Source of the DNA: a virus
DNA: 64,000 nt
Strand: one strand, 5' to 3'
Virus record (IMG/VR): IMGVR_UViG_3300017989_000082
Location: 1-64,000 of that record
A program made the position numbers and the translations under genes. Under the pieces are notes generated by a model. It did not search any database. It worked only from the letters and a program-made list of their open reading frames with translations, and was not told where the DNA came from. Positions 1,785 through 15,001 of the stretch are shown piece by piece (position 1 is the first letter of the stretch; every line of letters starts with the position of its first letter).

Positions 1785-1823
1785 GTGCCGCTCTTTGTCA
1801 CTTTAAATAACTCTTTTTGTCAC
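1785..1823. promoter_or_regulatory. Putative enhancer (UAS) site pair between divergent sigma54 promoters
   Basis: GTGCCG-CTCTT-TGTCAC (1785) and ATAACT-CTTTT-TGTCAC (1807). Confidence 0.65.
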
Positions 1824-1977
1824 TCTACTCTATTTATCATCGTCATCTTATTATCTTCTCTTTTTGGCCAACCGCCCCCTTTAAGTATTGACTACAAATT
1901 GGTACGGCGACTGCTCTATTATCAGCCGTAAAGAGGTCGCCAGCGTAGACTATAAATTATTGGAATCGCTATACTTT

Positions 1978-1993
1978 TGGCATGGCATTTGCA
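1978..1993 (+). promoter_or_regulatory. sigma54 (-24/-12) promoter
   Basis: TGGCATGGCATTTGCA. Confidence 0.85.
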
Positions 1994-2032
1994 TAATTTT
2001 TGGGTAACAAATTAAGCCATGAAGGAGCTAAA

Positions 2033-2284
2033 ATGAAAAAGTATTATATCAAAAGAAGACAAAGAAGACTTGGTGGGTGGGCTGTTATGTGTCCCTGTTG
2101 CGACAAACCAATTGCCAACGGGATGCGTAAAGAAGTTGCCGAGGCATATTGCGCCTTGCAAAACAGCGATGCCCTTCAGCGACAAATAGACAAAGAGTTT
2201 AAGAAAGGAATTTGCTATGATCCTGAAGGAATCACAGAGAGAATTGTTGAAGCCTATTATCGAACAGGCAGGTTTCCTGTCTAA
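2033..2284 (+). CDS. Hypothetical protein (CPCC motif)
   Basis: AAGGAG RBS before ATG 2033; follows a sigma54 promoter. Confidence 0.7.
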   Translation: MKKYYIKRRQRRLGGWAVMCPCCDKPIANGMRKEVAEAYCALQNSDALQRQIDKEFKKGICYDPEGITERIVEAYYRTGRFPV

Positions 2285-2498
2285 AAAAGATATTGAGGCC
2301 CTGCTGGCAAGTGGCGACAACATGGGGCAATTGCCCTGTCTGATCCGCTGTGGGAATGTCAGGCTTATTACGGCGATGATGTATGCGCCTATTATGGTGC
2401 AGATTATTAATAACGAAACTGTCGTGAATGATTATGTCAGAGATGTTTCCTTTGACAAGGCAACATACGACAAAATCAAAGCGGCACTCGGGAGGTAG
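2217..2498 (+). CDS. Hypothetical protein
   Basis: 93-aa ORF in the operon, ending 2 nt before polX; start uncertain. Confidence 0.55.
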   Translation: MILKESQRELLKPIIEQAGFLSKKDIEALLASGDNMGQLPCLIRCGNVRLITAMMYAPIMVQIINNETVVNDYVRDVSFDKATYDKIKAALGR

Positions 2499-2500
2499 TA

Positions 2501-3361
2501 ATGGCTAAGGGAAAGAAAATGAAAACGATCCACGCAAGGCCCATAGCCAAGGAGGTTGAGGCGGCTCTTAAGGCCGTGCCTTGCGTGGCCGATGTTGTAG
2601 TTTGTGGTTCGATGCGGCGGATGCGCCCCGAGCTGAACGATGTAGATGTGGTCGTCGTCAGCGAAACCATGAACCCGAAGGGCCAAATCTGGTCGCAACT
2701 GCCAAAGTGCGACCATCTTAACAACGGAAACACCGACAAGCGCATTATTTATAAGGGGCTTCAGTTCGACATTCGGGTGTTTCCGCATCGGGCAAAAGGG
2801 GCGGCTCTGCTGTTCTCAACTGGCTCTGCCCGCTTCAATGTGCAGATGCGAAGTCATGCCAAGCGGCTCGGCTTTAAGCTGAACCGCTACGGTGTCTGGA
2901 AGGGGGACACAAACCTGACAGTGGGGTTTGATGAAAAGCAGATCTTTGAATTATTGGGGCTGAAGTATGTTGAGCCTAAAGATCGTGATGACAGCATTAT
3001 CACCAATAAGAAGATAAAGAGGCGCACATGGGTTATCAGAAGCAAGAGTAACCCGAACAAGAAATACAAGGTAAGCCTTGAGGATGGCGAGCTTCGATGC
3101 GAGTGTAAGGGTTTTACTTTTCGACGAACCTGCTGGCATACCAAGAAGGTAAGAGAAAGCCTTGGTGATGTTATGCCTGAAAAGGAGAGAATTCACAAGT
3201 ATCGTAAGATAAAAGTCATGTGCTCGTCATGCAATGAATGGCACGATGAACGGGAAGTAGATGGCATGGATATTTATGAGGACATGGAGGGAAAAGATGT
3301 TTTAGTATTCATCTGCCCCCGGTGTGGAACCAAGCGGGAATCTCGCCGCTATATGGAATAA
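2501..3361 (+). CDS. polX: Minimal DNA polymerase X (palm and thumb) fused to a SWIM zinc finger and a C-terminal Zn ribbon
   Basis: GSMRR..ELNDVDVVV, FDIRV and LLFSTGSARFN...GFKLNRYG are PolX motifs. CECKGFTFRRTCWH is SWIM-like. CSSC...CPRC is a Zn ribbon. Confidence 0.85.
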   Translation: MAKGKKMKTIHARPIAKEVEAALKAVPCVADVVVCGSMRRMRPELNDVDVVVVSETMNPKGQIWSQLPKCDHLNNGNTDKRIIYKGLQFDIRVFPHRAKGAALLFSTGSARFNVQMRSHAKRLGFKLNRYGVWKGDTNLTVGFDEKQIFELLGLKYVEPKDRDDSIITNKKIKRRTWVIRSKSNPNKKYKVSLEDGELRCECKGFTFRRTCWHTKKVRESLGDVMPEKERIHKYRKIKVMCSSCNEWHDEREVDGMDIYEDMEGKDVLVFICPRCGTKRESRRYME

Positions 3362-3362
3362 A

Positions 3363-3395
3363 TTGCTTGATATGGATTTTCTGTTATGATAATAT
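3363..3395 (+). promoter_or_regulatory. sigma70-like promoter for the structured RNA or leader
   Basis: TTGATA-17-TAATAT, or alternatively TTGCTT-16-TATGAT. Confidence 0.5.
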
Positions 3396-3399
3396 TAAC

Positions 3400-3675
3400 G
3401 AACCTGTTGGAGCTGAGCCTGTGGAGGTTGGTACGAAATTTTTGCGTGGGTGTCCATGCGTCCGGCAGAGGGAGGCCGTACCGTAAAAAGAGTCATGCTG
3501 CCGGTGCATAGTGGGGTATGGGTTGGGAGCTTCGCCAGCCCTCTCCGTTATAACGGCCTACATGGGCCTAGGAGGGTAAATGGACACACAGTGCTGAGAC
3601 TTTCGGTTGCGGTCGAAGCAGGGCGGTTAGATAGCTAGTTCTCCAGCTTATGCCGCCCCTCCCAAGCAACCGCTT
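3400..3675 (+). ncRNA. Candidate structured RNA, family unknown
   Basis: Helices: 3450-57/3580-87, 3462-68/3498-3504, 3473-79/3553-59 (pseudoknot), 3520-26/3535-41, 3604-10/3666-72, 3621-26/3653-58. Promoter upstream, T-rich 3' tail. Confidence 0.55.
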
Positions 3676-3698
3676 TTCTTTTAACCAAGGAGGAAACA

Positions 3699-4187
3699 AT
3701 GAGTAGCGTATTACAAACAAGGTTTGGCAGACTCGTGATATGGGCGGCCGACAAAGACACAGTCAAAATCTCACCATCTGATTCCCCTGTAAAGATCTAT
3801 GGTGTGGGGTATGATGTCCACGCCACTCTTTGCAGATATGAAGAAGATGAATTCCAGATTTGTGATCCCGAAGAGTTTATTATGTCAAGATCCATACAGT
3901 CAGTAGACTGGAAAGACAAATTTGCTACGCCAGCGGCTAAGGAGGCCATGCATAAGGAGCTAGAGTATTTAGTACCTCTGTGGGCTTTGGAAAATATAGA
4001 AGAAAAACCTGAAGATGAAGGCATTCCCCCCGAAGATCCAGTTGAGCCTGAGCCTGAAAAGAATGAAGAACCAGATGATGGGCCAGACCTTACAACTATT
4101 GAAGGCAAGCGAGAAATGATCGCCAAGCTGAAAGAGCAGATTGCCCAGCTTAAGGTCGAGATAAATGAGGCCAAAAAGAGGCAGTAG
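3699..4187 (+). CDS. Hypothetical protein with acidic linker and C-terminal coiled coil
   Basis: AAGGAGG RBS; 162 aa. Confidence 0.8.
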   Translation: MSSVLQTRFGRLVIWAADKDTVKISPSDSPVKIYGVGYDVHATLCRYEEDEFQICDPEEFIMSRSIQSVDWKDKFATPAAKEAMHKELEYLVPLWALENIEEKPEDEGIPPEDPVEPEPEKNEEPDDGPDLTTIEGKREMIAKLKEQIAQLKVEINEAKKRQ

Positions 4188-4189
4188 CA

Positions 4190-4206
4190 GTAACAAAGAG
4201 TGTCAC
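4190..4206. promoter_or_regulatory. Putative UAS palindrome
   Basis: GTAACA-AAGAG-TGTCAC, with a weaker partner AGGCCA-AAAAG-AGGCAG at 4168. Confidence 0.6.
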
Positions 4207-4266
4207 TTTAGATTCCTAGATTAAACACCGAGGCCCTCAAGATAGTCCTAGAGGGCCTTTTTACGA

Positions 4267-4282
4267 TGGCACGCTGTTTGCA
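4267..4282 (+). promoter_or_regulatory. sigma54 (-24/-12) promoter
   Basis: TGGCACGCTGTTTGCA, a near-perfect match to the consensus. Confidence 0.9.
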
Positions 4283-4323
4283 TACCTTTGGGGTAACGCA
4301 CACAACCCGAAAGGAGGCAAGTT

Positions 4324-4692
4324 ATGGCGACAAGAATTACAGAAGGTTTTATGAAGGCGATCAGGCCAAAAATTGAGGAAGCTCTTGAGCTGGTAGGGGA
4401 AGAGTTTGAAGTTGAGTTTGAAACTGCCAGAGCCACCTACAATGAAAACTGGTTTGAAATGAAGATCAAGTGCAAGGCCGCCGGGGGTCTGACCAGAGAG
4501 CAAACTGATTATGATAACAGGCGTGCCAGGATTGGACTTCCGCCGCGAGGCAACACGGTCCACCTGAACGGCGTGCCGTATGAGATTTACGGCTGGAAGG
4601 TTTCAGCCAGAAAGTACAAGATTATTGTTATTGACAGGCGAACGGGAGAGCGGCTCAAGTGTACGCCCTGGGCGATCATCAACAGCCTTTAA
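4324..4692 (+). CDS. Hypothetical phage protein
   Basis: CGAAAGGAGG RBS; first gene of a sigma54 operon. Confidence 0.8.
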   Translation: MATRITEGFMKAIRPKIEEALELVGEEFEVEFETARATYNENWFEMKIKCKAAGGLTREQTDYDNRRARIGLPPRGNTVHLNGVPYEIYGWKVSARKYKIIVIDRRTGERLKCTPWAIINSL

Positions 4693-4703
4693 GGAGAACA
4701 GCT

Positions 4704-5012
4704 ATGTCAAATGTAAAGAAAATTCATCTTGAATACGTTCGGCACCTGTATGAGGAGCATTATTGTTACGATCATGCTGATTATCAGTACCTCATGATGC
4801 AGATTGGCCGAATTGTTACGAATCACAACGAGGGATTGTTGGTGGAAGTCACTCCATTTAACGGCTCCAAAAGCAGGGTCGTTATTAGCGGCGAAGAGGC
4901 TGTTTCCTACCTTTGGCTTAAAAAGATGGCCAGATGCATGAGAGCCTATGGCTCCAAATTCAATGGCTACCACCAGGACATTGAGGATAACGGCCCACAG
5001 ATAGCATTATAA
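4704..5012 (+). CDS. Hypothetical protein
   Basis: AAGGAG RBS before ATG 4704. Confidence 0.75.
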   Translation: MSNVKKIHLEYVRHLYEEHYCYDHADYQYLMMQIGRIVTNHNEGLLVEVTPFNGSKSRVVISGEEAVSYLWLKKMARCMRAYGSKFNGYHQDIEDNGPQIAL

Positions 5013-5022
5013 GGAGGCTAAA

Positions 5023-5235
5023 ATGAAGGCGTTGGACGGAACAGAATTAACAAAGGTATTGTGGAAGGATATTCGTGACGGGGACATTGTATATCTTTAC
5101 GCCACACATCAGGGTAAGGAGTATGGGATAGGGCCTTTCAGGGTGGTGTCAAAAAATAGAAGAGCCTTATGCCGAGTTGATTCAAAAAGAAATTTTCTTA
5201 ACTATCCTGAAGAGTTGTATAGAATCAAAATATAA
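5023..5235 (+). CDS. Hypothetical protein
   Basis: AAGGAGG RBS. Confidence 0.75.
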   Translation: MKALDGTELTKVLWKDIRDGDIVYLYATHQGKEYGIGPFRVVSKNRRALCRVDSKRNFLNYPEELYRIKI

Positions 5236-5246
5236 GGAGGCTTAAC

Positions 5247-5435
5247 ATGAACACGATTAACTGCGTAGGTTGTGGAAAAGAGCTTAAGTTGCAGGTTTGC
5301 CAGTCTGCGGCTGGATACTATGCTGGCCACTGGTGTAAGACCTGTGGACCACACGACCGTCAGAGCTTTTACTTTGGAACCAAAGAGGAGGCTCAGGAGA
5401 TGGTTGATCAGATGGTGAGCGCAACCAATAATTAG
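5247..5435 (+). CDS. Small Cys-containing protein (LQVCQSAAGYY...GP..R.S.YF type)
   Basis: AAGGAGG RBS; CxxC...CxxC. Resembles, from memory, small proteins of phages and mobile elements. Confidence 0.75.
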   Translation: MNTINCVGCGKELKLQVCQSAAGYYAGHWCKTCGPHDRQSFYFGTKEEAQEMVDQMVSATNN

Positions 5436-5445
5436 GAGGTGGTTA

Positions 5446-5685
5446 ATGTTTTGCAAGAATACGCTTCGGCGTAAGCCGAGCCAGATTTACAACCCGGCAG
5501 ATGTCGGCAGTTTTGGTACTATTTACGTGAATCCTACCACATACCATGAGTTTGAACAGCGAGTCCCGAATCATGGTTTCAATTTATTAATTTCTCGTAA
5601 TATTCCTGATGGGCACTTAGAGCTCGTAACACAAGATTCTAGGAAGATGGTTACACTTGATGCTCTGGTCGCCTTTCTCCGGTAA
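5446..5685 (+). CDS. Hypothetical protein
   Basis: AGGAGGT RBS. Confidence 0.7.
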   Translation: MFCKNTLRRKPSQIYNPADVGSFGTIYVNPTTYHEFEQRVPNHGFNLLISRNIPDGHLELVTQDSRKMVTLDALVAFLR

Positions 5686-5719
5686 CTCTTTACGGCACTC
5701 CAGTAACAAATAGAGTCAT
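5682..5719. promoter_or_regulatory. Putative UAS site pair
   Basis: GTAACT-CTTTA-CGGCAC (5682) and GTAACA-AATAG-AGTCAT (5703), 21 bp apart. Confidence 0.7.
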
Positions 5720-5772
5720 TAGACAATTAACTCCTTTGATTGGTTACCTGAATAGACTACTCTTTTTCAGGT

Positions 5773-5788
5773 TGGCATGGCTGTTGCA
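5773..5788 (+). promoter_or_regulatory. sigma54 (-24/-12) promoter
   Basis: TGGCATGGCTGTTGCA, preceded by AATAGACTACTCTTTTTCAGGT. Confidence 0.88.
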
Positions 5789-5829
5789 TACCTGTAGGGT
5801 AACAACCCGCACCGAAAGGAGAATGGAAA

Positions 5830-6141
5830 ATGAAAAATGGAAAGAAGACGAAAGTGTATCACGCAGACCCGCCGCGGTTTAGTGTGTTTGGCGATGAAGA
5901 GCTGCTGGAATCCCTTCATGATTTTCCCAGCGGCTACGAGTTGGCCGCTACTGCCGATTTCCCCATGCTGGATCTTGTTTACCAGCTTACCAACAGTATT
6001 GACTGGCCGTGGTGGGAGAATGAGGGTGTCACCATGGAGGGTAATGTTGAGGGTCGGCGAAGTACCAGCGTCGGTGATGTCATTGTGATTCCCGACGGAA
6101 GCCGCTTCGTGGTCGCCCTTATGGGTTTCAAACAATTTTAA
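5830..6141 (+). CDS. YodL-like domain protein
   Basis: C-terminal RRSTSVGDVIVIPDGSRFVVALMGF resembles the YodL-type R/H-S-L-S-V-G/S-D-V-I motif. Confidence 0.55.
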   Translation: MKNGKKTKVYHADPPRFSVFGDEELLESLHDFPSGYELAATADFPMLDLVYQLTNSIDWPWWENEGVTMEGNVEGRRSTSVGDVIVIPDGSRFVVALMGFKQF

Positions 6142-6143
6142 GG

Positions 6144-6350
6144 ATGTGCATCATGTCAAGGGTTGCCACCAAAGAGCAAATCATTGATGATATTCTATCA
6201 GACACCAGCGAGCATTGCGATAACATTGGTGAAATACTCTATGAACTCTTTACCAGAGAACAAAACACCCAAAAGCTCAGGTCTTTGCTTGAGGAATACT
6301 TTGCCGATGAATCAGCTCTGACCAAATGGCAACAACTTGACTGGATATAA
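6144..6350 (+). CDS. Hypothetical acidic protein
   Basis: ORF in the operon; start at 6144 or 6153. Confidence 0.65.
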   Translation: MCIMSRVATKEQIIDDILSDTSEHCDNIGEILYELFTREQNTQKLRSLLEEYFADESALTKWQQLDWI

Positions 6351-6359
6351 GGAGGCACT

Positions 6360-6722
6360 ATGCCTAGCATGAGAGACACACATAAGAGAATAGAAAAAAG
6401 ACTCAAAAAAATGGAGGAAGAAATGCCCTACAAAGAAGAATACATGGAGCAGGCCAAGGCCGCGGCTGAGCAGGTCGCACGCCTTATCAACAATTTCAGC
6501 GATGATCCTGCCAAAGCCTTTGTTGAGGCGATGGGCAGTCAGCACCGCACGCTCCAGCAAAACTTCATGGGGCTGGTTTGCGGATGGATTCAAATGAATG
6601 CCGACCGCTACGCCCGCGGCCAGTACGACCTACGCAATGAGGCGACTTGCCAGCTTTGCGCCAGAATTAAGGAATCGCTTGAGACCTGTGGCTACGAGCT
6701 ATATAAGTTACCAACAGTATAA
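6360..6722 (+). CDS. Hypothetical protein
   Basis: AAGGAGG RBS; 120 aa. Confidence 0.8.
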   Translation: MPSMRDTHKRIEKRLKKMEEEMPYKEEYMEQAKAAAEQVARLINNFSDDPAKAFVEAMGSQHRTLQQNFMGLVCGWIQMNADRYARGQYDLRNEATCQLCARIKESLETCGYELYKLPTV

Positions 6723-6736
6723 CCTAGAACCTACGA

Positions 6737-6782
6737 GTCCGCAGGGGAATTAAACTCCTTTCGCCCCTGCGGGCCTTTTTTA
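6737..6782 (+). terminator. Intrinsic terminator with an anti-SD-like loop
   Basis: GTCCGCAGGGG/CCCCTGCGGGC stem plus T-run; the loop contains CTCCTTTCG. Confidence 0.75.
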
Positions 6783-6805
6783 TCTTATTAACGGATATCG
6801 TTTTA

Positions 6806-6843
6806 GTAACTCTTTACGGCGCTCTAATGACTCTTTGCGGCAC
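6806..6843. promoter_or_regulatory. Putative UAS site pair
   Basis: GTAACT-CTTTA-CGGCGC (6806) and ATGACT-CTTTG-CGGCAC (6827), 21 bp apart. Confidence 0.7.
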
Positions 6844-6896
6844 TGAGATTAACAGACCATATTTCTCTTCCTTAAATAGATTACTCTTTTTCAGGC

Positions 6897-6912
6897 TGGC
6901 ATGGGTGTTGCA
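6897..6912 (+). promoter_or_regulatory. sigma54 (-24/-12) promoter
   Basis: TGGCATGGGTGTTGCA, preceded by AATAGATTACTCTTTTTCAGGC. Confidence 0.88.
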
Positions 6913-6969
6913 TACAAATAGGGTGTAAGCGTTGAACCCAACCGACACAACAACCGAAAGGAGACTACT

Positions 6970-7257
6970 ATGGCGAATGTAAGATTTAGAGGCGGTAAGC
7001 GTTCCAGAGGCTATACTGAACACAGGCATAACCGGGACCCCAAGCCTGTGAAGGAAATCGAATTCTACGGAACCCGGTTGGAATCTTTCTATGACGGTAT
7101 GCTTTCTTCCATCGAGCGGGTGTTTGAGGCGAGCCCCGGCATCACTCAGATGAACCCCCGGCACGCTGTCTTGTTTAGGCAGTTGGCAGACAGTTACCAT
7201 CAGTTGTCTGCTGTTCGGCGCAACCAACTCAGGAGCATTGTGCGTAAAGGAGTTTAA
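6970..7257 (+). CDS. Hypothetical basic protein
   Basis: CGAAAGGAG RBS. Confidence 0.75.
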   Translation: MANVRFRGGKRSRGYTEHRHNRDPKPVKEIEFYGTRLESFYDGMLSSIERVFEASPGITQMNPRHAVLFRQLADSYHQLSAVRRNQLRSIVRKGV

Positions 7258-7260
7258 AAA

Positions 7261-7602
7261 ATGCCAGCATACAATCTGCCTGAAGGGGTAATGGAAGAAG
7301 AAGAGCGGGAAGTGCTTGATATCCGCGGCGGTGTTTCGTGGGAGTACGCCCCGGCATACTGGCTTAACGACAGTGAGTGGGCTACCGTCTTGCTTCACCG
7401 CACCCCTGATCCCTGCCCGTTCTGCGGAAGCATCCGGCTTGAACCGCACGTCGGCAACTGCTATGAGGGGAACAAGCTGTGGGATGAGTATTTCTGTCAG
7501 GATTGCGGCGAAGCGGTTGTCTGGGTTGTTTGGTTTGATGGGTCGCCCCCAACATGGGACATCAACCACCTTAATCCAATGATTGAAAGGAGTTTGATAT
7601 GA
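7261..7602 (+). CDS. Zn-ribbon protein, possibly Lar (restriction alleviation)-like
   Basis: PCPFCGS...YFCQDCGE resembles the Lar-family pattern; AAGGAG RBS. Confidence 0.55.
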   Translation: MPAYNLPEGVMEEEEREVLDIRGGVSWEYAPAYWLNDSEWATVLLHRTPDPCPFCGSIRLEPHVGNCYEGNKLWDEYFCQDCGEAVVWVVWFDGSPPTWDINHLNPMIERSLI

Positions 7603-7775
7603 GTAGAGCCGATACTGTATGTATTCACTGTGAATTCTTCGCCCTGAACTGGTGCGAGGAAGTGGCGCAAACAATGGCAGAGAATGCGCCAGGAGTTGAA
7701 TGCTCGCATGAGTTTGATGTAAACCTGAACGAGCCTTGCGGGTGTTACTGCCCCGTAGAGGGTCTAACCGAATAA
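7599..7775 (+). CDS. Small Cys-rich protein (58 aa, not in ORF track)
   Basis: AAGGAG RBS and ATGA overlap; MSRADTVCIHCEFF...PCGCYCPVEGLTE. Confidence 0.65.
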   Translation: MSRADTVCIHCEFFALNWCEEVAQTMAENAPGVECSHEFDVNLNEPCGCYCPVEGLTE

Positions 7776-7787
7776 AAGGAGAAAGCT

Positions 7788-7991
7788 ATGAAACTCGCAC
7801 CCCCTTGCGTTATCTGTGGTAAGAAAAACCCGTTTTACGAAGATGTGTGGGTGATTACCCCTAAGGGAGTAGCCTGCCTGAAACACTCAGGAGTAAAGGA
7901 GGAATTTGAGAAAGTATACAAAGATGTTGGCGGTGAGGATGGGTATCTTGATCTTTTGCTCGAAATAGATAAATACTCAACGGAGGAATGA
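7788..7991 (+). CDS. Small Zn-finger-like protein
   Basis: AAGGAG RBS; CVIC...CLKH. Confidence 0.7.
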   Translation: MKLAPPCVICGKKNPFYEDVWVITPKGVACLKHSGVKEEFEKVYKDVGGEDGYLDLLLEIDKYSTEE

Positions 7992-8028
7992 TCATGAGGC
8001 TTACTGCAACAGCATAAGGAGAAATGCC

Positions 8029-8553
8029 ATGAGTAAAAGACCAAAAATGAAAATCATGAAGATCAGTGCGTGCATCGGTTGCCCGAATGTGCATCTTCAC
8101 AGTGTTGGGCATTATTCGTGTTGGGAAATGACAAAAAGTCTTGAGAGTATTGATGTAACAAGCCATACTCCTGACTGGTGCCCTTTATCTGAATTTGCTA
8201 TTCCCAATTTCATTACCGAAGGGTTTTTCGTTGAGGCTCTCAACAAGATTCTTGAAATTGAGGCCGAGCATGATGGTGGCGGTGAGTATCCAACATGGTT
8301 TACCGATAACGAGCTTGACCGCACGACCTATTGGTCCAATATGAGGAGGGCCATTGAAGACCTTTTGGGCGGAATGACCCCGAAGTTTGAGACCATGAAC
8401 CTTGACGATGCCTTGACAATGGCCTATGAGGATCTGCGTGACCTTTCCCCTTTTGATGGCAATAAGCTGGCCTCTATCATTACACTGATCTCAGGCCGCG
8501 GGGCTCGTTATAACCCTGAAACCGACTTGATCGAATTAGAGCCTGAAGGGTGA
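8029..8553 (+). CDS. Hypothetical protein with N-terminal Cys motif
   Basis: AAGGAG RBS; CIGCP...C...PDWCPL. Confidence 0.75.
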   Translation: MSKRPKMKIMKISACIGCPNVHLHSVGHYSCWEMTKSLESIDVTSHTPDWCPLSEFAIPNFITEGFFVEALNKILEIEAEHDGGGEYPTWFTDNELDRTTYWSNMRRAIEDLLGGMTPKFETMNLDDALTMAYEDLRDLSPFDGNKLASIITLISGRGARYNPETDLIELEPEG

Positions 8554-8596
8554 TTTTCGACCCCTGCCTGCTTCTGTCAGCAGGAAATAGGTTTAA

Positions 8597-8640
8597 AGGG
8601 GCGTCTCAGGCTGCTCAGGATGCCCTTAGACGCCTTTTTT
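8597..8640 (+). terminator. Intrinsic terminator
   Basis: AGGGGCGTCT/AGACGCCTTT stem plus T-run. Confidence 0.6.
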
Positions 8641-8701
8641 CTTAAAATAGGTACTCAAGCCCGCCTAGAAGGCTCGAAGGCTTTAAAACGGCTCTACGTG
8701 G

Positions 8702-8818
8702 CTCGTAATACGCCTGACTCGTAACACGTAAGACTCGTAATATATATTTCGTACTTAAAGAGTTACGAGAAAGAGCTAGATTACGAGTTACGAGCTAGAT
8801 TACGAGTTACGAGCTAGA
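8702..8818. repeat. Cluster of CTCGTAA motifs (3 forward at 16-bp period, then 5 reverse)
   Basis: CTCGTAA at 8702, 8718, 8734; TTACGAG at 8763, 8781, 8788, 8800, 8807. Includes a 19-bp tandem duplication. Confidence 0.85.
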
Positions 8819-8842
8819 CCTCCTACCCGATAAGATTACCCT

Positions 8843-8880
8843 ATGACTCTTTTTGCTTATCTTTTGCCGCAGATTGTCAC
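8843..8880. promoter_or_regulatory. Putative UAS site pair
   Basis: ATGACT-CTTTT-TGCTTA (8843) and TTGCCG-CAGAT-TGTCAC (8864), 21 bp apart. Confidence 0.55.
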
Positions 8881-8943
8881 AATTAGATATCGCTTGCCGC
8901 TACCTACAACATCCTGCCCCTGTAACGACTAATCTATTCGGGT

Positions 8944-8959
8944 TGGCACAGGAGTTGCA
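8944..8959 (+). promoter_or_regulatory. sigma54 (-24/-12) promoter
   Basis: TGGCACAGGAGTTGCA. Confidence 0.88.
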
Positions 8960-9021
8960 CCCTATATGTGCGTATGGCAGAAGCATTTGTCGTTAACCCG
9001 AAGTAGAAAGGAGACAAAATT

Positions 9022-9390
9022 ATGAATGAGAAGCTTCGTCTTATTGAGCAGGGAAAGCCCACTGGTCGGCTTACGGCTGATGAATGGGCGGTCGTGCTCA
9101 AGGCAATCGAAAAGGGCGAAATCGAAACCGACGGAACCCATGTGGAACGGTTTGATATCCTGATTGATGTTATCAAGGCAAGGGGCTCCTGCCATGACCA
9201 GCCGAATGGCTGTGTCGGTTGTATTATTGATAGGGCAACCGGGGGCGACGAACTTGCCTGTGATGTGGCTGTCTTCGGGCCTATTCATGATATGCTGATT
9301 TACTGGATAACTGGTGTTCGGCCAACTGATGCCGACTTGAGTATTCACAATGACCATATGGCGGGCTGTCGGCAGTATTACGGTGAGTAA
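9022..9390 (+). CDS. Hypothetical protein
   Basis: GAAAGGAG RBS; first gene after a sigma54 promoter. Confidence 0.75.
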   Translation: MNEKLRLIEQGKPTGRLTADEWAVVLKAIEKGEIETDGTHVERFDILIDVIKARGSCHDQPNGCVGCIIDRATGGDELACDVAVFGPIHDMLIYWITGVRPTDADLSIHNDHMAGCRQYYGE

Positions 9391-9444
9391 TCGGGAACAG
9401 GGCGGGCTTGTCCCGCCCTAACCCCAACCAAAAAGGAGAAGACA

Positions 9445-9759
9445 ATGCCGGGAATCAGAATTATTGAGTGGACGGCGAGGGCACACACCAAGAGTGAATG
9501 GGTTGACATTATTACGGAATTCCAGTCGGCCCTGGAGCACGTTGACCAGACACACATCACCTTCAAGATCAACGAGCCCAACCAGCTTGACCCGGAAGAC
9601 AGAATCACTATTAATTGGAAGGAAAGGCGGGGATTCCAGTACCTCAGGGACGGGGCCGGGCACTGGTCCTGTCAGACCTTTGCCAGCCGCGCCTACGAAG
9701 ACCTGATACTGGCCGTATTGGGCGGAGCAGGAGTTAGGTTCCGCATAACCTATAAGTAG
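9445..9759 (+). CDS. Hypothetical protein
   Basis: AAGGAG RBS. Confidence 0.75.
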   Translation: MPGIRIIEWTARAHTKSEWVDIITEFQSALEHVDQTHITFKINEPNQLDPEDRITINWKERRGFQYLRDGAGHWSCQTFASRAYEDLILAVLGGAGVRFRITYK

Positions 9760-10027
9760 GGAGATATAACGATGGCGAAAGAAATAAGAATCCTCAAGGT
9801 GCGGCACATGGGAACCGTCGGTAATGAGATTAAAGCCCAAGCCGATGATTATGAACTCTGTGCCTCTGGCAGGACATGGGCGGAAGCGGTGACGACCCGA
9901 TGATGAATTGGGGGTGGTTTGACGACCTGCCCCAGCCGCTGCCGAAGGCTGATATTATCGCTTCGAAGAAGTAAAACCGGTCCGGGCGGGGGCCAAAAGC
10001 GTCCCCGTCCTAGTGGAAGGAGAAGAT

Positions 10028-10450
10028 ATGTCAGTTACCAAGGTTAATCTTGACCGATGGCTACTGGAAGGTGCGGTAGATAAGTGGTATCAGATATGCT
10101 TTGCTAACGGCGTCGACCGCGGCGGGCAGAACTGCCCTCTGTGTCAACACTACAACGAGTACTGCTGTACGACTACCGACGGAGAGCCCGTCAACTTTAA
10201 CGACCTTATTGACAATAACGAGAATATCCACCGATGCCCCGTCTTCGAAGAGTCAGAGCTGAGTGATTGCCAGAATACTCCGTACGATCAGTGGAACAGA
10301 TACGTTAAGGCTCGGACTACCTGTGCTCGTATAGGCAGAGAAAAACGCTGGGAGGGCTGGAAGGTTTCTGACCTGCGTTCCCTCTACCTCGCCTTTAACG
10401 AATACTGCTACCTTAAACGACTACTGGAAGAAAGGAGCGAAGATGTTTAA
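10028..10450 (+). CDS. Cys-rich hypothetical protein
   Basis: AAGGAG RBS; NCPLCQHY...CPVF...C. Confidence 0.75.
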   Translation: MSVTKVNLDRWLLEGAVDKWYQICFANGVDRGGQNCPLCQHYNEYCCTTTDGEPVNFNDLIDNNENIHRCPVFEESELSDCQNTPYDQWNRYVKARTTCARIGREKRWEGWKVSDLRSLYLAFNEYCYLKRLLEERSEDV

Positions 10451-10655
10451 ACCTCTGATTATAGGCTATAAGTACGAGCAGACCTACTACTTACACAAAA
10501 CAGATGTGTATATGTCTGCTGGTAACGAACCCACCGCGGCTCGGTTCTTCTGTACCCTAGCCTCCCTTCCGACTGCCGTAAGAGCCTACGGGCCTATATA
10601 CGATAAAAACGGTAACGAAGTAGATATAGATCAACTTATCAGAAAACACCTGTAA
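10443..10655 (+). CDS. Hypothetical protein
   Basis: AAGGAG RBS; overlaps the upstream stop codon. Confidence 0.7.
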   Translation: MFKPLIIGYKYEQTYYLHKTDVYMSAGNEPTAARFFCTLASLPTAVRAYGPIYDKNGNEVDIDQLIRKHL

Positions 10656-11289
10656 GGAGAAGAGCTATGTTTCAAATGTGTTTTTAGATCAGATAAACAA
10701 CAACAACAGCGGCTACAATATCAACGAGCATACCTATAAACTATTCGTCGCCTCTATAGATATTTACCCACAAGGCCGTAAATATCTCTACCGCTACTTT
10801 ATAAACCTCGAAGGCGACTACTAAAAATCCGCTCATCCTGAAAAGACTCTCAGCCTGTATTTAAGACCATAGGCTTTTCTTTGAATAGATGCAATAGACG
10901 TACTATACAACACATAATACTATAGACCTCTACCCCTGCTATCATATAAAATACCCCCCCCAACCCCTAGCCCCTCTATATATCTAGAACTTTCTACGAT
11001 GCCCGTAGCCGTTACTCTAGCCCTAAACTAATACCTGAGCCTACCCTAATACAATCGAACGCCTTACGATTGATTTACCTACCCCTAACCAAACCCCTCG
11101 TAACAAATACTACCTCGTAATATACTACACAACTGAGACGTCTGGTTAAGAGCGGGTAGACCTCGTAACGCAGAGCTCTATCAAAGACCTCTATATCTAT
11201 TCATCTATTGCAGACATCTATATCTACCCCTCCAGACTCCTGGTATCTGTGCTCTAATGCCTCTGCCTCCATTACTCTAGTCGGGAAAC

Positions 11290-11510
11290 AATATATATAT
11301 ATATATCACTCTGTCCAGAAATCTAGTCTATTACCACCCCGAAAATCAGGAGAACGACGTCCTCTAATAGTTGGTAGTATCTGATTTATATAAATAATCA
11401 CCAATATCCTGCCCCTTTTCTCTTTTGTCCCCATCTATATCTGTATCGTTATCTTAGCATATACCATCTATATCTGTATCGTTATCTGTATCGTTATTTG
11501 TATCGTTATT
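11290..11510. repeat. (AT)n tract and 12-bp TGTATCGTTATY repeats in a non-coding region
   Basis: ATATATATATATATAT near 11291; CCATCTATATCTGTATCGTTATCT duplicated; TGTATCGTTATY x4. Confidence 0.75.
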
Positions 11511-11710
11511 TTAGGAATAACCTGCTCTTTTCCTCTTTCATCCCCATCTCAAATCTGGCTAAAGAGCTCCACTTATGCAGATATCGTACCAAAAATCCAT
11601 CGGAAGTTATAAAAACTCTAAGATATCGTATAAAAAAGATTATAAAAGTACAAAAAGACGTCAAAGACGTCAGATTATATATTTAGAGTAGATAAGAAGA
11701 TCATAAAAAG

Positions 11711-11748
11711 ATTACAAAAAGAGCCACTAGATTAACAAATAGAGTCAC
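11711..11748. promoter_or_regulatory. Putative UAS site pair
   Basis: ATTACA-AAAAG-AGCCAC (11711) and TTAACA-AATAG-AGTCAC (11732), 21 bp apart. Confidence 0.65.
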
Positions 11749-11810
11749 AGACCCATGTACGATAAGCACAGCCTGGGAACTGCCCCTTGAATAGATTACT
11801 CTTTTACAGT

Positions 11811-11826
11811 TGGCATGGGAGCTGCA
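11811..11826 (+). promoter_or_regulatory. sigma54 (-24/-12) promoter
   Basis: TGGCATGGGAGCTGCA, preceded by AATAGATTACTCTTTTACAGT. Confidence 0.82.
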
Positions 11827-11887
11827 TACTGTATAGGGTGCAGGCAGGTGCGTTTATCGTTTAAATAGAAACAGAAAGGAGAAGATA

Positions 11888-12076
11888 ATGGTATGGAGAG
11901 GGTTAACAGAGTACGTAGTCTACTTCAGGACCGAGCACTGCGGTCCTGAATACGAGGTGGTATCGGGGTCGTTCGACCCCGATAGGGCCAAGGAGATGGC
12001 CGAGCAGCTGACTGAGCGACTGGCTACGCTGGTCGACTGCGGGTGCTGTCTGCCCGCAGTTAAACGAAAGGATTAA
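11888..12076 (+). CDS. Hypothetical protein
   Basis: GAAAGGAG RBS. Confidence 0.7.
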   Translation: MVWRGLTEYVVYFRTEHCGPEYEVVSGSFDPDRAKEMAEQLTERLATLVDCGCCLPAVKRKD

Positions 12077-12080
12077 GATA

Positions 12081-12293
12081 ATGATAGAAAAGATCAAGAG
12101 GGCTGCGTATACTGCTCTTAATCGGAGGGGCGTTGTTCTCGCCCCTACCCCGAAGGAGATTCGATTCCCGCAGTTCGACCCCTGCCGGGCAGTAATGCCT
12201 ATCGCTATTGTAGAGTGGCGAGCGACTGTTAATATGGAAGAGAAGATTCTCACCCATGTTATTATGCCCGGCGATATTTCTTTCCGGACCTAG
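12081..12293 (+). CDS. Hypothetical protein
   Basis: ORF in the operon; AAGGA RBS. Confidence 0.6.
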   Translation: MIEKIKRAAYTALNRRGVVLAPTPKEIRFPQFDPCRAVMPIAIVEWRATVNMEEKILTHVIMPGDISFRT

Positions 12294-12305
12294 AGGAGAA
12301 GATTA

Positions 12306-12512
12306 ATGCTTACAGACAACGATATTTTCATGAGGATCTTAGGCACGGTCTTGCTCTTTACCGTTATTATAGGAGCGGCTATCGTTTGTAAGGCTAACGT
12401 ACAGCTCGGAAGCTACCGAGTGAGATATTTCCCGGCAGACGGCGAGTATTGCGATTGCTATACCAACGAGCTGGGAGAAGAATACTGCGGACCCTGCTAC
12501 TATATAGATTAG
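12306..12512 (+). CDS. Small membrane protein with a Cys-rich tail
   Basis: GAGGAG RBS; one hydrophobic helix; YCDCY...YCGPCY. Confidence 0.7.
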   Translation: MLTDNDIFMRILGTVLLFTVIIGAAIVCKANVQLGSYRVRYFPADGEYCDCYTNELGEEYCGPCYYID

Positions 12513-12662
12513 ACCTGCCTTAACGCCCGCCCGATCAAGAGGCCGCCAGAGGAAGGAGGAAACTGGTGGCTATCCTTCCGTACCGGGTTTGGATATCTAG
12601 GCTCGTAACGCAGGGTTCGCTCTAAGAGGTCGTAATCCTACCTCGTAACCCGATGTCGAAAT

Positions 12663-12866
12663 AAAGATGTCGAAATCGGAGGTCGGGCCTCGTAACCCAG
12701 ACCTCTTTAAAAGATGTCGAATCCGACCTCCTGCCTCGTAACCCGGACGGAAGATAAAGATGTCGAATCCGACCTTCTGCCTCGTAACCCGGACGGAAGA
12801 TAAAGATGTCGAATCCGACCTTCTGCCTCGTAACCCGGACGGAAGATAAAGATGTCGAATCCGAGG
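12663..12866 (+). repeat. 46-bp tandem repeat (3 full, 1 partial and 1 degenerate copy)
   Basis: Unit AAAGATGTCGAATCCGACCTYCTGCCTCGTAACCCGGACGGAAGAT starts at 12710, 12756, 12802 and 12848, with a degenerate copy at 12663. Confidence 0.9.
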
Positions 12867-12898
12867 TCGAAATCGGAGGACCGAGCCCTGGACCCGAG

Positions 12899-12936
12899 GT
12901 GCCGTAAAGAGTCATACGAGTGCCGCTCCTTGTCAC
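12899..12936. promoter_or_regulatory. Putative UAS site pair
   Basis: GTGCCG-TAAAG-AGTCAT (12899) and GTGCCG-CTCCT-TGTCAC (12920), 21 bp apart. The second is nearly identical to the 1785 site. Confidence 0.7.
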
Positions 12937-13169
12937 TTTTCGACCAGATTACTCTTTCAGGAGCTCGTGATATACGAGTCGGGGAAGGACTTCAAGATCG
13001 GACATATGTAATGCCAACTAAGGATGTCTTGGCTGAGGGGGGGGTAGAAAATACACCCTGAACGGCCGTATAAAACAACCGTTTGCCTTTAAATTCAATA
13101 AGTTAGGCAATTGCCTAAAAAATTAGCCCGAAAAGAAAAATGACGAAAAAAGCTTATTTTTTCATGTAT

Positions 13170-13268: not shown

Positions 13269-14093
13269 ATGCAAGAAAAAATCAAAACGGCAAAGGCAAG
13301 AAAAGAAGAATTGATTTTGAACATTGAAAAAACCGAAAAGGTGCTTTTTGATGCCGCGGCCGCGCTTAAGGTGGCAAAAGGAAAAAGCAAGGTTGCCGCG
13401 CGCAAGGCGCTTAAGGTTGCCGAAAAGAACCATGCGGCCGCGGTTGATGCGGCACGCGCCGCGGGCGTGTTGCCTGCGCCTGAAAACACCGCGGCTGAAA
13501 GTGAAGCAAACACCGCGGCTAAAAAATTGAGTGACGCGCCCGCGCCCGCGGCCGTCAAGGCTCAGGCAATCATTGACGCGGCAGTTGACGCTACGCCCGC
13601 GGTCAAAAAGAAGGTTCAAGAAAAGCTGGCCGAAAGCGCGCCTGAAGTACACGCGGAATATATGAAGCTTGTGGCCGCGGCCGCGCGAATGGGTGAAGCA
13701 ACCCAACCGGTTTTAACACTCAACAATTCACTCATTGAGGTTGAGCGCGGCACAAAAGAAGTTGACGTTAACAACATACCAATTGTGTCAAGCGCGTTCG
13801 GTGCGGTTGAATTTTTGCGGCCACGGCTGAATAATGCCCGCTTCATTCTCACCGCGAAGAACCTAAAAGCGGGCAAGGAAGCTTCAATTCGCATTTTTGA
13901 GCGCGGCCAAACGAAACCTACATCACGCGTGATATTCACCGCACGTTCGGGTGAATTCGGAAGCTCAGCGAAGGAAATGTCAAACATGGGTATTGCCTGT
14001 GAACGCATAACCCATGGTGGGAAATATGGTTATTCAACCGCGTGGGAAAAACTTCAGGCTTTCTACACCGAAAATTTCTGCATCAAGAAATAA
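13269..14093 (+). CDS. Hypothetical protein with Ala/Lys-rich N-terminus and globular C-terminus
   Basis: GAAAGGA RBS before ATG 13269; monocistronic between a sigma54 promoter and a terminator. Confidence 0.8.
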   Translation: MQEKIKTAKARKEELILNIEKTEKVLFDAAAALKVAKGKSKVAARKALKVAEKNHAAAVDAARAAGVLPAPENTAAESEANTAAKKLSDAPAPAAVKAQAIIDAAVDATPAVKKKVQEKLAESAPEVHAEYMKLVAAAARMGEATQPVLTLNNSLIEVERGTKEVDVNNIPIVSSAFGAVEFLRPRLNNARFILTAKNLKAGKEASIRIFERGQTKPTSRVIFTARSGEFGSSAKEMSNMGIACERITHGGKYGYSTAWEKLQAFYTENFCIKK

Positions 14094-14153: not shown

Positions 14154-14156
14154 CTT

Positions 14157-14394
14157 GCCCCTGCCTTGCCACCAGGCTTGCCCCTGCCTTGCCACCAGCA
14201 CGCCACCAGCACGGCCACCAGCACGGCCACCAGCACGGCACCAGCACGCCCACCAGCACGCCCCCTGCCTTGCCACCAGCACGGCACCAGCACGCCCCCT
14301 GCCTTGCCACCAGGCTTGCCACCAGCACGCCCCCTGCACGCCACCAGGCTTGCCACCAGCACGCCCCCTGCCTTGCCACCAGCACGGCACCAGC
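14157..14394 (-). repeat. Tandem array containing 9 exact GCTGGTGG (Chi) octamers and 6 one-mismatch variants, all on the minus strand
   Basis: CCACCAGC at 14192, 14203, 14215, 14227, 14250, 14273, 14319, 14353, 14376; also CCACCAGG x3 and GCACCAGC x3. Confidence 0.85.
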
Positions 14395-14553
14395 TTGACA
14401 GCTTTCACTGGTTAACACCTTTTGACGCGTTGCGTCAAAGTGTCAAAGTGTCAATTTGATTCTCAATATGGGAAAAAATTGTCACATTAATATATGCGCA
14501 TAGCCAAAATGGGCATGGCTGTGATGTGTCCCTCCTCACAAATAATCGCTCTT

Positions 14554-14982
14554 CTCTTTTCAATATCCCACGAGTCTCTTTTCAATATCCCACGAGTCTC
14601 TTTTCAATATCCCACGAGCTTAACAAACTCGCCAAAACCTCGCCAAAACACACTATATTCTCCCCAAAGTAAGTACCTGTCTGCAAAAAAACCGTCCCAA
14701 TTTTTTCAATATCCCCCGAGTATTACCCCTAACAAAACACGCCTAAATACCCCCTAAATAACTTTATAAATGTCCTATGATGTGAATGATGTGAAATTGG
14801 TGTGAATGATGTGAAATGTTTGTCCCCTTTTTAAACCCCTAGCGCATTTATGACGCAATGTGTCCATTAATAAGTGGATGTTAAAAGATTTCACATACCC
14901 CCACATACCCCCACCCTATCTCCCTTTTGTTTCATTTATTATGGACTAATTATGGACTAATTATGGACTAATTATGGACCAA
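14554..14982. repeat. Iteron-like short tandem repeats
   Basis: 22-bp CTCTTTTCAATATCCCACGAGT x3 (14554-14618) plus a variant near 14703; TGATGTGAA repeats near 14780; CACATACCCC x2; 11-bp TTATGGACYAA x4 (14939-14982). Confidence 0.85.
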
Positions 14983-15001
14983 TTATCAAAGACTTATTTA
15001 T

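Follow-up and report, generated by a model that had tools for sequence, protein, structure and literature searches.

The DNA analyzed here (the window, positions 1 to 64,000) is the left 64 kb of a linear, 96,332-bp IMG/VR viral contig, IMGVR_UViG_3300017989_000082, that is estimated to be 76% complete. Our subject is a set of 17-bp sites, most of them paired, that lie upstream of predicted sigma-54 promoters near the left end, and the kind of protein that may act through them. The contig is that of a tailed phage, as judged by genes for the terminase, portal, tail and replication. No isolated phage has a terminase more than 37% identical to the one encoded here, and there was no near relative among isolated phages compared by DNA. 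Five public sequencing runs contained DNA from the contig, all of them from marine sediment and seawater metagenomes, and no RNA run was among those listed; the phage is an uncultured, marine-sediment phage. The first 13.2 kb form an island of approximately 30 small genes. In a Pfam search with the island proteins nearly all had no match, and the matches that were found were to a PolX-like polymerase, a RadC-like JAB protein and, weakly, a Lar-like protein. We looked for an integrase in the phage and found none.

We scanned the window for the promoter pattern TGGCAY-N5-TTGCA, allowing up to one mismatch, and found 14 matches compared to 3.7 expected. Eight matches were intergenic. All eight were within the first 13.2 kb, seven on the plus strand and one on the minus strand, and by their sequence they are predicted promoters of near-consensus sigma-54 type. 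The minus-strand promoter, P1656 (-24/-12 boxes at 1641-1656), faces leftward genes for a 209-amino-acid protein (942-1568) and the RadC-like JAB protein (300-827). On the plus strand, P1978 (1978-1993) heads genes at 2033-3361, the PolX-like polymerase gene among them, P4267 (4267-4282) heads genes at 4324-5685, P8944 (8944-8959) heads genes at 9022-10655, and P13170 (13170-13185) heads a gene at 13269-14093. P5773 (5773-5788), P6897 (6897-6912) and P11811 (11811-11826, with one mismatch, CTGCA at -12) are clear paralogues, nearly identical in the promoter and in a proximal element that abuts it; together with that element they span 5751-5788, 6875-6912 and 11790-11826. Modules consist of the candidate enhancer and the promoter, followed by small genes (one to six) and a terminator.

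An earlier reading of the letters, made without database searches (the sequence-only reading), had proposed 13 sites upstream of these promoters, and all 13 were present at the positions given. They form six pairs and one single site. Start-to-start spacing was 22 bp for the sites at 1785 and 1807 (1785-1823) and 21 bp for the other five pairs, as had been reported. It had also been claimed that five of the elements end 54-64 bp before the -24 box, and we measured 54 bp at P5773 (pair 5682 and 5703; 5682-5719), 54 bp at P6897 (pair 6806 and 6827; 6806-6843), 61 bp at P4267 (the single site at 4190-4206, GTAACA-N5-TGTCAC), 63 bp at P11811 (pair 11711, weak, and 11732, strong; 11711-11748) and 64 bp at P8944 (pair 8843, weak, and 8864, better; 8843-8880). 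A weak partner proposed at 4168 for the single site was not upheld, its matrix score of 8.7 being within the range of chance. The pair at 1785 and 1807 lies between the divergent promoters P1656 and P1978, 154 bp from one of them and 128 bp from the other. The sixth pair (12899 and 12920) belongs, with a copy of the proximal element (12899-12961), to an orphan module that has lost its -24/-12 boxes. Within 12899-12970 these positions read AGCTCG...ATATAC, which suggests that the orphan module is a decayed promoter cassette. No intact promoter is closer to it than P13170, which lies 234 bp downstream. P13170 itself has no 17-bp site within 200 bp.

The sites had been described as a degenerate palindrome. 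The dyad form stands, and the symmetry is only half of what was proposed: each site combines a canonical half, YGTCAC or CGGCAC, with a variant half that reads GTAACT, ATGACT or GTGCCG. Read in one orientation, the motif is RTRAC-T-CTTT-NY-GKCAC, with a conserved T-rich center, and sites were found in both orientations. To rank each site, we built a weight matrix from all loci except the one tested and ranked the held-out sites among 96,316 positions (leave-one-locus-out). Nine of the 13 ranked first or second, including 1785 (rank 2), 1807 (rank 1) and 11732 (rank 1), and 11 ranked fourth or better, including 8864 (rank 4). The lower-ranked sites were 8843 (rank 10) and 11711 (rank 26). An unbiased word count found ACTCTTT, the center of the motif, to be enriched upstream of seven promoters, and the word TAGATTA was enriched along with it.

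Enterobacterial enhancers of this kind, those of NtrC, ZraR and PspF (at glnAp2, zraP/zraS and pspA), are built of two dimer sites that share a helical face, at approximately -80 to -140. The phage sites have their centers at approximately -88 and -109 at five promoters, an upstream location like that of sigma-54 enhancers (approximately -70 to -200), and the six pairs, 21-22 bp apart, place two dyads of 17 bp on one face of the helix, the dyads being imperfect. The divergent promoters P1656 and P1978 also resemble zraP/zraS, where one enhancer is shared by two promoters. Position, dyad form, spacing and an association exclusively with sigma-54 promoters thus fit the proposal that these are tandem sites for a bacterial enhancer-binding protein, and the specificity of the motif is apparent both in the cross-validated ranks and in a binomial test with an external consensus (below). 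We consider it very probable that the paired sites are sigma-54 enhancers in the general sense. The sequence-only reading put the whole island under a single activator, and such control may not extend to all eight promoters, P13170 having no site nearby. The activators of Escherichia coli did not provide a model for the motif. The PspF and ZraR enhancers at pspA and zraP, which we read directly, are unlike it, no paired site of the phage type was found in E. coli K-12, and the NtrC site, TGCACC-N5-GGTGCA, is different.

Several other sequence features lie beside the enhancers. The proximal element is a 21-nucleotide sequence, AATAGAYTACTCTTTTTCAGG, that abuts the -24 box at 5751-5771, 6875-6895 and 11790-11809; it is also found at the orphan module (12944-12961) and, inverted, at 8928-8936. 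It resembles a third copy of the enhancer center, in half-site form, or a bending site. We looked by eye for an integration host factor (IHF) site in the spacer and the proximal element, and there was no convincing match to WATCAANNNNTTR. The predicted start region of the transcripts is conserved in the phage as TTGCATAC, 4-6 nucleotides, and GGGTAAC (1994-2010, 4283-4300 and 5789-5806). Pilin promoters of Candidatus Thiodiazotropha have a similar start (GGTAAC/CCGGCG; loci L132 and L133), a weak lead to the host, as the similarity was within chance (p of approximately 0.05). Arrays of CTCGTAA(C) at 8702-8813, 11097-11168 and 12602-12864 occupy long non-coding stretches upstream of three of the enhancer pairs. 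There are 22 copies of this word in the genome, 19 of them in the first 13.2 kb, and the word includes the GTAAC half-site. The arrays have 16-bp and 19-bp periods and a 46-bp tandem repeat in five copies, and may serve as iterons or be bound by another DNA-binding protein. Past the island, approximately 1 kb of non-coding DNA contains several families of tandem repeats (14154-14394, 14553-14618 and 14938-14986), including a 23-bp array that contains CCACCAGC and three exact 22-bp repeats.

The sequence-only reading had also held that the motif would be the key to the activator. We scanned bacteria, one genome per species, for two perfect boxes of the form GTGAC-N7-GTCAC that were 3-7 bp apart. 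Among the matches listed, there were six loci with a sigma-54 promoter 87-129 bp from the tandem boxes. Four of these six, all from Gammaproteobacteria, had the boxes just after the stop codon of an operon encoding a histidine kinase and an NtrC-type regulator, a family for which the Joint Genome Institute (JGI) name is PilR. The promoter beyond the boxes heads a gene for type IV pilin at two of these loci; of the other two, one has a target with no family match and one is cut off by the end of the contig.

We also approached these loci independently of the box. Eighty loci were taken by PilR homology alone, and all inverted repeats were counted in the 350 bp after the gene; the count covers 75 pilR loci, 35 with a pilin gene following and 40 without. 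The top dyad was TGAC-N7-GTCA, found in 23 of the 35 pilin-linked loci and in none of the 40 others (Fisher p = 7e-11). Boxes in tandem, 20-21 bp apart, were recognized by the junction GTCA-N5-TGAC in 15 of the 35. Groups bearing the box were Gammaproteobacteria, Desulfobacterales (Desulfobacterota), Geobacteraceae and Myxococcota. Several of the bacterial boxes, for example GTGACAAAAATTGTCAC after pilR, are letter for letter the ideal form GTGACA-N5-TGTCAC that had been deduced from the phage alone. The motif did therefore lead to a named candidate: its ideal form is the box of pilR-pilin spacers, which points to PilR as the putative activator.

A search for a degenerate tandem pattern gave a similar picture. 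In five host genomes searched whole, it occurred in only one place, a pilR-pilin spacer. Among 401 Gammaproteobacteria, seven genomes matched, and one of the seven matches was a pilR-pilin spacer (G081) with boxes 22 bp apart, the second of which carries GTGCCG, a half frequent in the phage. Two observations from these searches stand apart. Spacers linked to a pilin gene (among loci L131-L210) had a second dyad, ATGATCG-N6-CGATCAT, in 11-13 of 35 cases, compared to none of the 40 controls, and it may be the site of another regulator in pilin control regions. In one genome (G191, L215 1501-1538), a prophage-like replication region has an open reading frame (ORF) that contains two copies of the box GTGACACAAAATGTCAC at a spacing of 21 bp; there is no sigma-54 promoter near them, and they may be iterons rather than an enhancer.

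The loci resemble known pilin control regions. In PilS-PilR control of pilA in Pseudomonas aeruginosa, Geobacter sulfurreducens, Myxococcus, Lysobacter and Xanthomonas there is likewise a -24/-12 promoter with upstream tandem dyads 20-22 bp apart. The pilR gene has been described directly upstream of a sigma-54 pilA promoter (PMC2725144), and pilA expression depends on PilR (PMC6058289). The published description of the P. aeruginosa sites is looser, TGT-N11-ACA plus GTCT elements (PMC8035640, PMC6058289); the TGAC-N7-GTCA box is a comparative derivation of this analysis. Unlike the pilA loci, the phage has eight promoters in 13 kb, and its elements precede small genes in place of one for pilin. 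Genes for pilin, PilS and PilR were found neither in the island nor elsewhere in the contig, and the elements would thus act like a pilin enhancer outside any pilin locus.

We then scanned the phage with GTGAC-N7-GTCAC alone, a consensus that comes from the surveyed bacteria. There were 34 sites with up to two mismatches genome-wide, and eight were in the 1.5 kb of promoter-upstream sequence (binomial p = 5e-8). All three of the one-mismatch sites in the phage were inside the island, and there were three pairs of consensus sites at a distance of 19-24 bp compared to 0.03 expected. Together with the held-out ranks, this external scan bears out the proposal that the motif is enriched at the promoters relative to the rest of the genome. 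Ten of the 13 sites have up to two mismatches to the consensus (one and two for sites 1785 and 1807, respectively), most of them with one perfect half, and the 21-22 bp spacing of the pairs agrees with the 20-22 bp of the tandem PilR boxes. Judged from sequence, the fit of the phage motif to the bacterial box appears real but partial.

Sigma-54 promoters need an AAA+ ATPase activator and are silent without an active one. We therefore looked for an activator in the phage, and for other phages with the same arrangement. Viral contigs were scanned by promoter pattern, and only one other phage was found, a 39-kb podovirus contig (G001; locus L004). Matches elsewhere, two in Acidobacteria genomes and one in metagenome contigs, were judged to be chance. 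G001 has three boxes upstream of its sigma-54 promoter, two of them perfect GTGAC-N7-GTCAC and one a GTGCC variant; the perfect pair has a spacing of 23 bp, and 64 bp separate its end from the promoter. It also has the same start region, TTGCATAC...GGGTAAC (L004 534-547). The only protein match between G001 and the marine-sediment phage was a single weak one (33% identity over 145 amino acids, E = 5e-7). Given this common cis architecture and the near absence of common proteins, the factor that acts on the sites is expected to come from the host. Neither contig had a match to PF00158, PF14532 or PF04552, indicating that neither encodes a sigma-54 activator or sigma-54, and a PilR profile that we built found nothing among the six-frame ORFs of either. 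With no activator encoded in either phage, the factor is probably host PilR. A third case, the marine podovirus PQ867844 (Zobellviridae), has a sigma-54 promoter at the start of its leftward genes that is preceded by three GTAAC-type CGTAACACTT repeats 21 bp apart. Both podoviruses have a non-coding leader of 500-750 nucleotides between the sigma-54 promoter and the first ORF (L004 534-1027; L212 45150-45890, minus strand), which may be a structured or regulatory RNA.

The arrangement is not limited to these phages. We scanned viral contigs for a single perfect box located 45-75 bp before TGGCAY-N5-TTGC, and matches came from 64 further contigs, which are of varied kinds and represent 50 non-redundant promoters. 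A pilin gene followed the promoter in one of the 50. The distances between box and promoter fell in clusters of 49-54, 61-64 and 69-75 bp, repeating approximately every 10.5 bp (Rayleigh R = 0.56, p = 2e-7); this R was not reached in any of 20,000 simulations. The corresponding distances in the marine-sediment phage (53, 53, 60, 62 and 63) are mostly in phase, 60 being approximately 1.8 bp off the mean. A second box with up to three mismatches was found 20-24 bp away at 27 of the 50 promoters, compared to 4% expected, and the GTGCCG half is also found in second boxes of other phages.

We think it probable, although well short of certain, that the paired 17-bp sites are upstream activating sequences for a host protein of the NtrC family, most likely the pilus response regulator PilR. 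From the observed anatomy, statistics and comparative pattern we infer PilR binding, activation and the biological logic as follows. Phosphorylated PilR dimers would occupy both sites, two turns apart on one face of the helix, and would assemble into an AAA+ ring. Bending of the short spacer would let the ring reach the sigma-54 holoenzyme closed on the -24/-12 boxes, 54-64 bp downstream, and the ring would spend ATP to open the promoter. Each module would then be on only where PilS-PilR is active, that is, in cells making type IV pili.

Several observations weigh against PilR. The phage sites are degenerate hybrids, with one to three mismatches to the bacterial consensus and four at 8843. The GTAAC halves and the CTCTT center were in none of the pilR-pilin spacers examined. 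Phage boxes are 54-64 bp from the promoter, compared to 87-129 bp at the bacterial pilin promoters among the matches listed. The contig is only approximately 76% complete, and the missing part could encode a phage activator. In addition, GTAAC-type tandem sites with 22-bp spacing lie before other sigma-54 genes in one gammaproteobacterium, and CbrB of Pseudomonas, an NtrC-family activator of sigma-54 promoters, uses subsites TGTTAC and GTAACA (PMC6296734), the latter identical to several of the phage halves. Because of these GTAAC sites elsewhere and the CbrB subsites, an activator other than PilR is possible.

The sites could thus be enhancers that serve another NtrC-family activator of the host, one with a Fis-type DNA-binding domain, for example a regulator with a preference for GTAAC halves such as a CbrB-like protein or the activator of the cNMP/CBS/DUF294 genes, and we regard this as unlikely but worth serious consideration. 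GTAAC or TAAC accounts for approximately a quarter of the phage half-sites and is dominant in PQ867844. In one bacterial genome (G083; L218 and L221, each 1501-1539), tandem GTAAC-N7-GTYAC sites 22 bp apart lie before two paralogous genes for cyclic nucleotide (cNMP)-binding/CBS/DUF294 nucleotidyltransferases, one of which has a sigma-54 promoter 74 bp from the sites; this looks like an undescribed sigma-54 regulon with a box related to the PilR box. However, the commonest half-site in both the marine-sediment phage and G001 is TGAC/GTCA, which is the PilR core, and the GTGCCG variant was seen in a genuine pilR-pilin spacer (that of G081). The placement of bacterial tandem perfect boxes at sigma-54 promoters after a pilR-type gene, in four of six among the matches listed, also argues against it. 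At the CbrB targets crcZ, crcY and PP2810 of Pseudomonas putida, the forward and reverse subsites are further apart, with an IHF site between them; most of the phage halves are TGAC or TGCC, and CbrAB has been described as exclusive to pseudomonads (PMC6296734).

It is improbable that the sites are bound by a phage DNA-binding protein (a repressor, an anti-activator or an unconventional activator), with the likeness to the PilR box being a coincidence or mimicry. The asymmetric center CTCTTT, the related element ACTCTTTTTCAGG at -24 and the word TAGATTA indicate more constraint than a Fis-type dimer site needs, most of the island genes have no recognized function, and the contig is incomplete. 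Such a protein would nevertheless leave the requirement of sigma-54 for an AAA+ activator to be supplied, and none is encoded in the contig; nor does it account readily for a common architecture in this phage and G001, with their single weak protein match, or for the same boxes, helically phased, in 64 other viral contigs. It is very improbable that the 17-bp sites are inert remains left by the duplication of promoter cassettes rather than binding sites, since they have been kept in diverged modules (P1978/P1656, P4267, P8944 and the orphan module at 12899), where the intervening sequence has changed, are found in both orientations and recur with the same architecture in unrelated phages, despite the clear paralogy of P5773, P6897 and P11811.

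Phages are thought to start transcription from sigma-70 promoters or with their own polymerases. The modules of the island resemble phage morons and early-gene cassettes in having the same insulated promoter, few small genes and a terminator, and to our knowledge the known morons and cassettes use sigma-70 or phage polymerases. We found no paper on natural phage promoters or cassettes for which sigma-54 and an enhancer-binding protein of the host are required; a study of prophage pilins (PMC12952977) has no mention of PilR or RpoN. Since sigma-54 promoters are silent without an activator, approximately 30 phage genes would be conditional on one host signaling pathway. If that pathway is PilS-PilR, as we favor, the phage would sense the building of type IV pili, which commonly serve as phage receptors and mark life on surfaces, and there would be a testable link from receptor regulation to phage gene expression. 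The sequence signature could help to predict hosts, which would need rpoN and pilSR, and the promoters would provide a compact, tightly off set with defined spacing rules. The chances seem to us evenly balanced that there is a widespread, undescribed class of compact sigma-54 promoters in which unrelated phage families tie early or accessory genes to the host type IV pilus regulator via helically phased, PilR-type enhancers. If so, the class would confine expression to piliated cells, which are often those with the phage receptor, and this 96-kb phage, with seven enhancer modules over approximately 30 genes, would be an extreme case.

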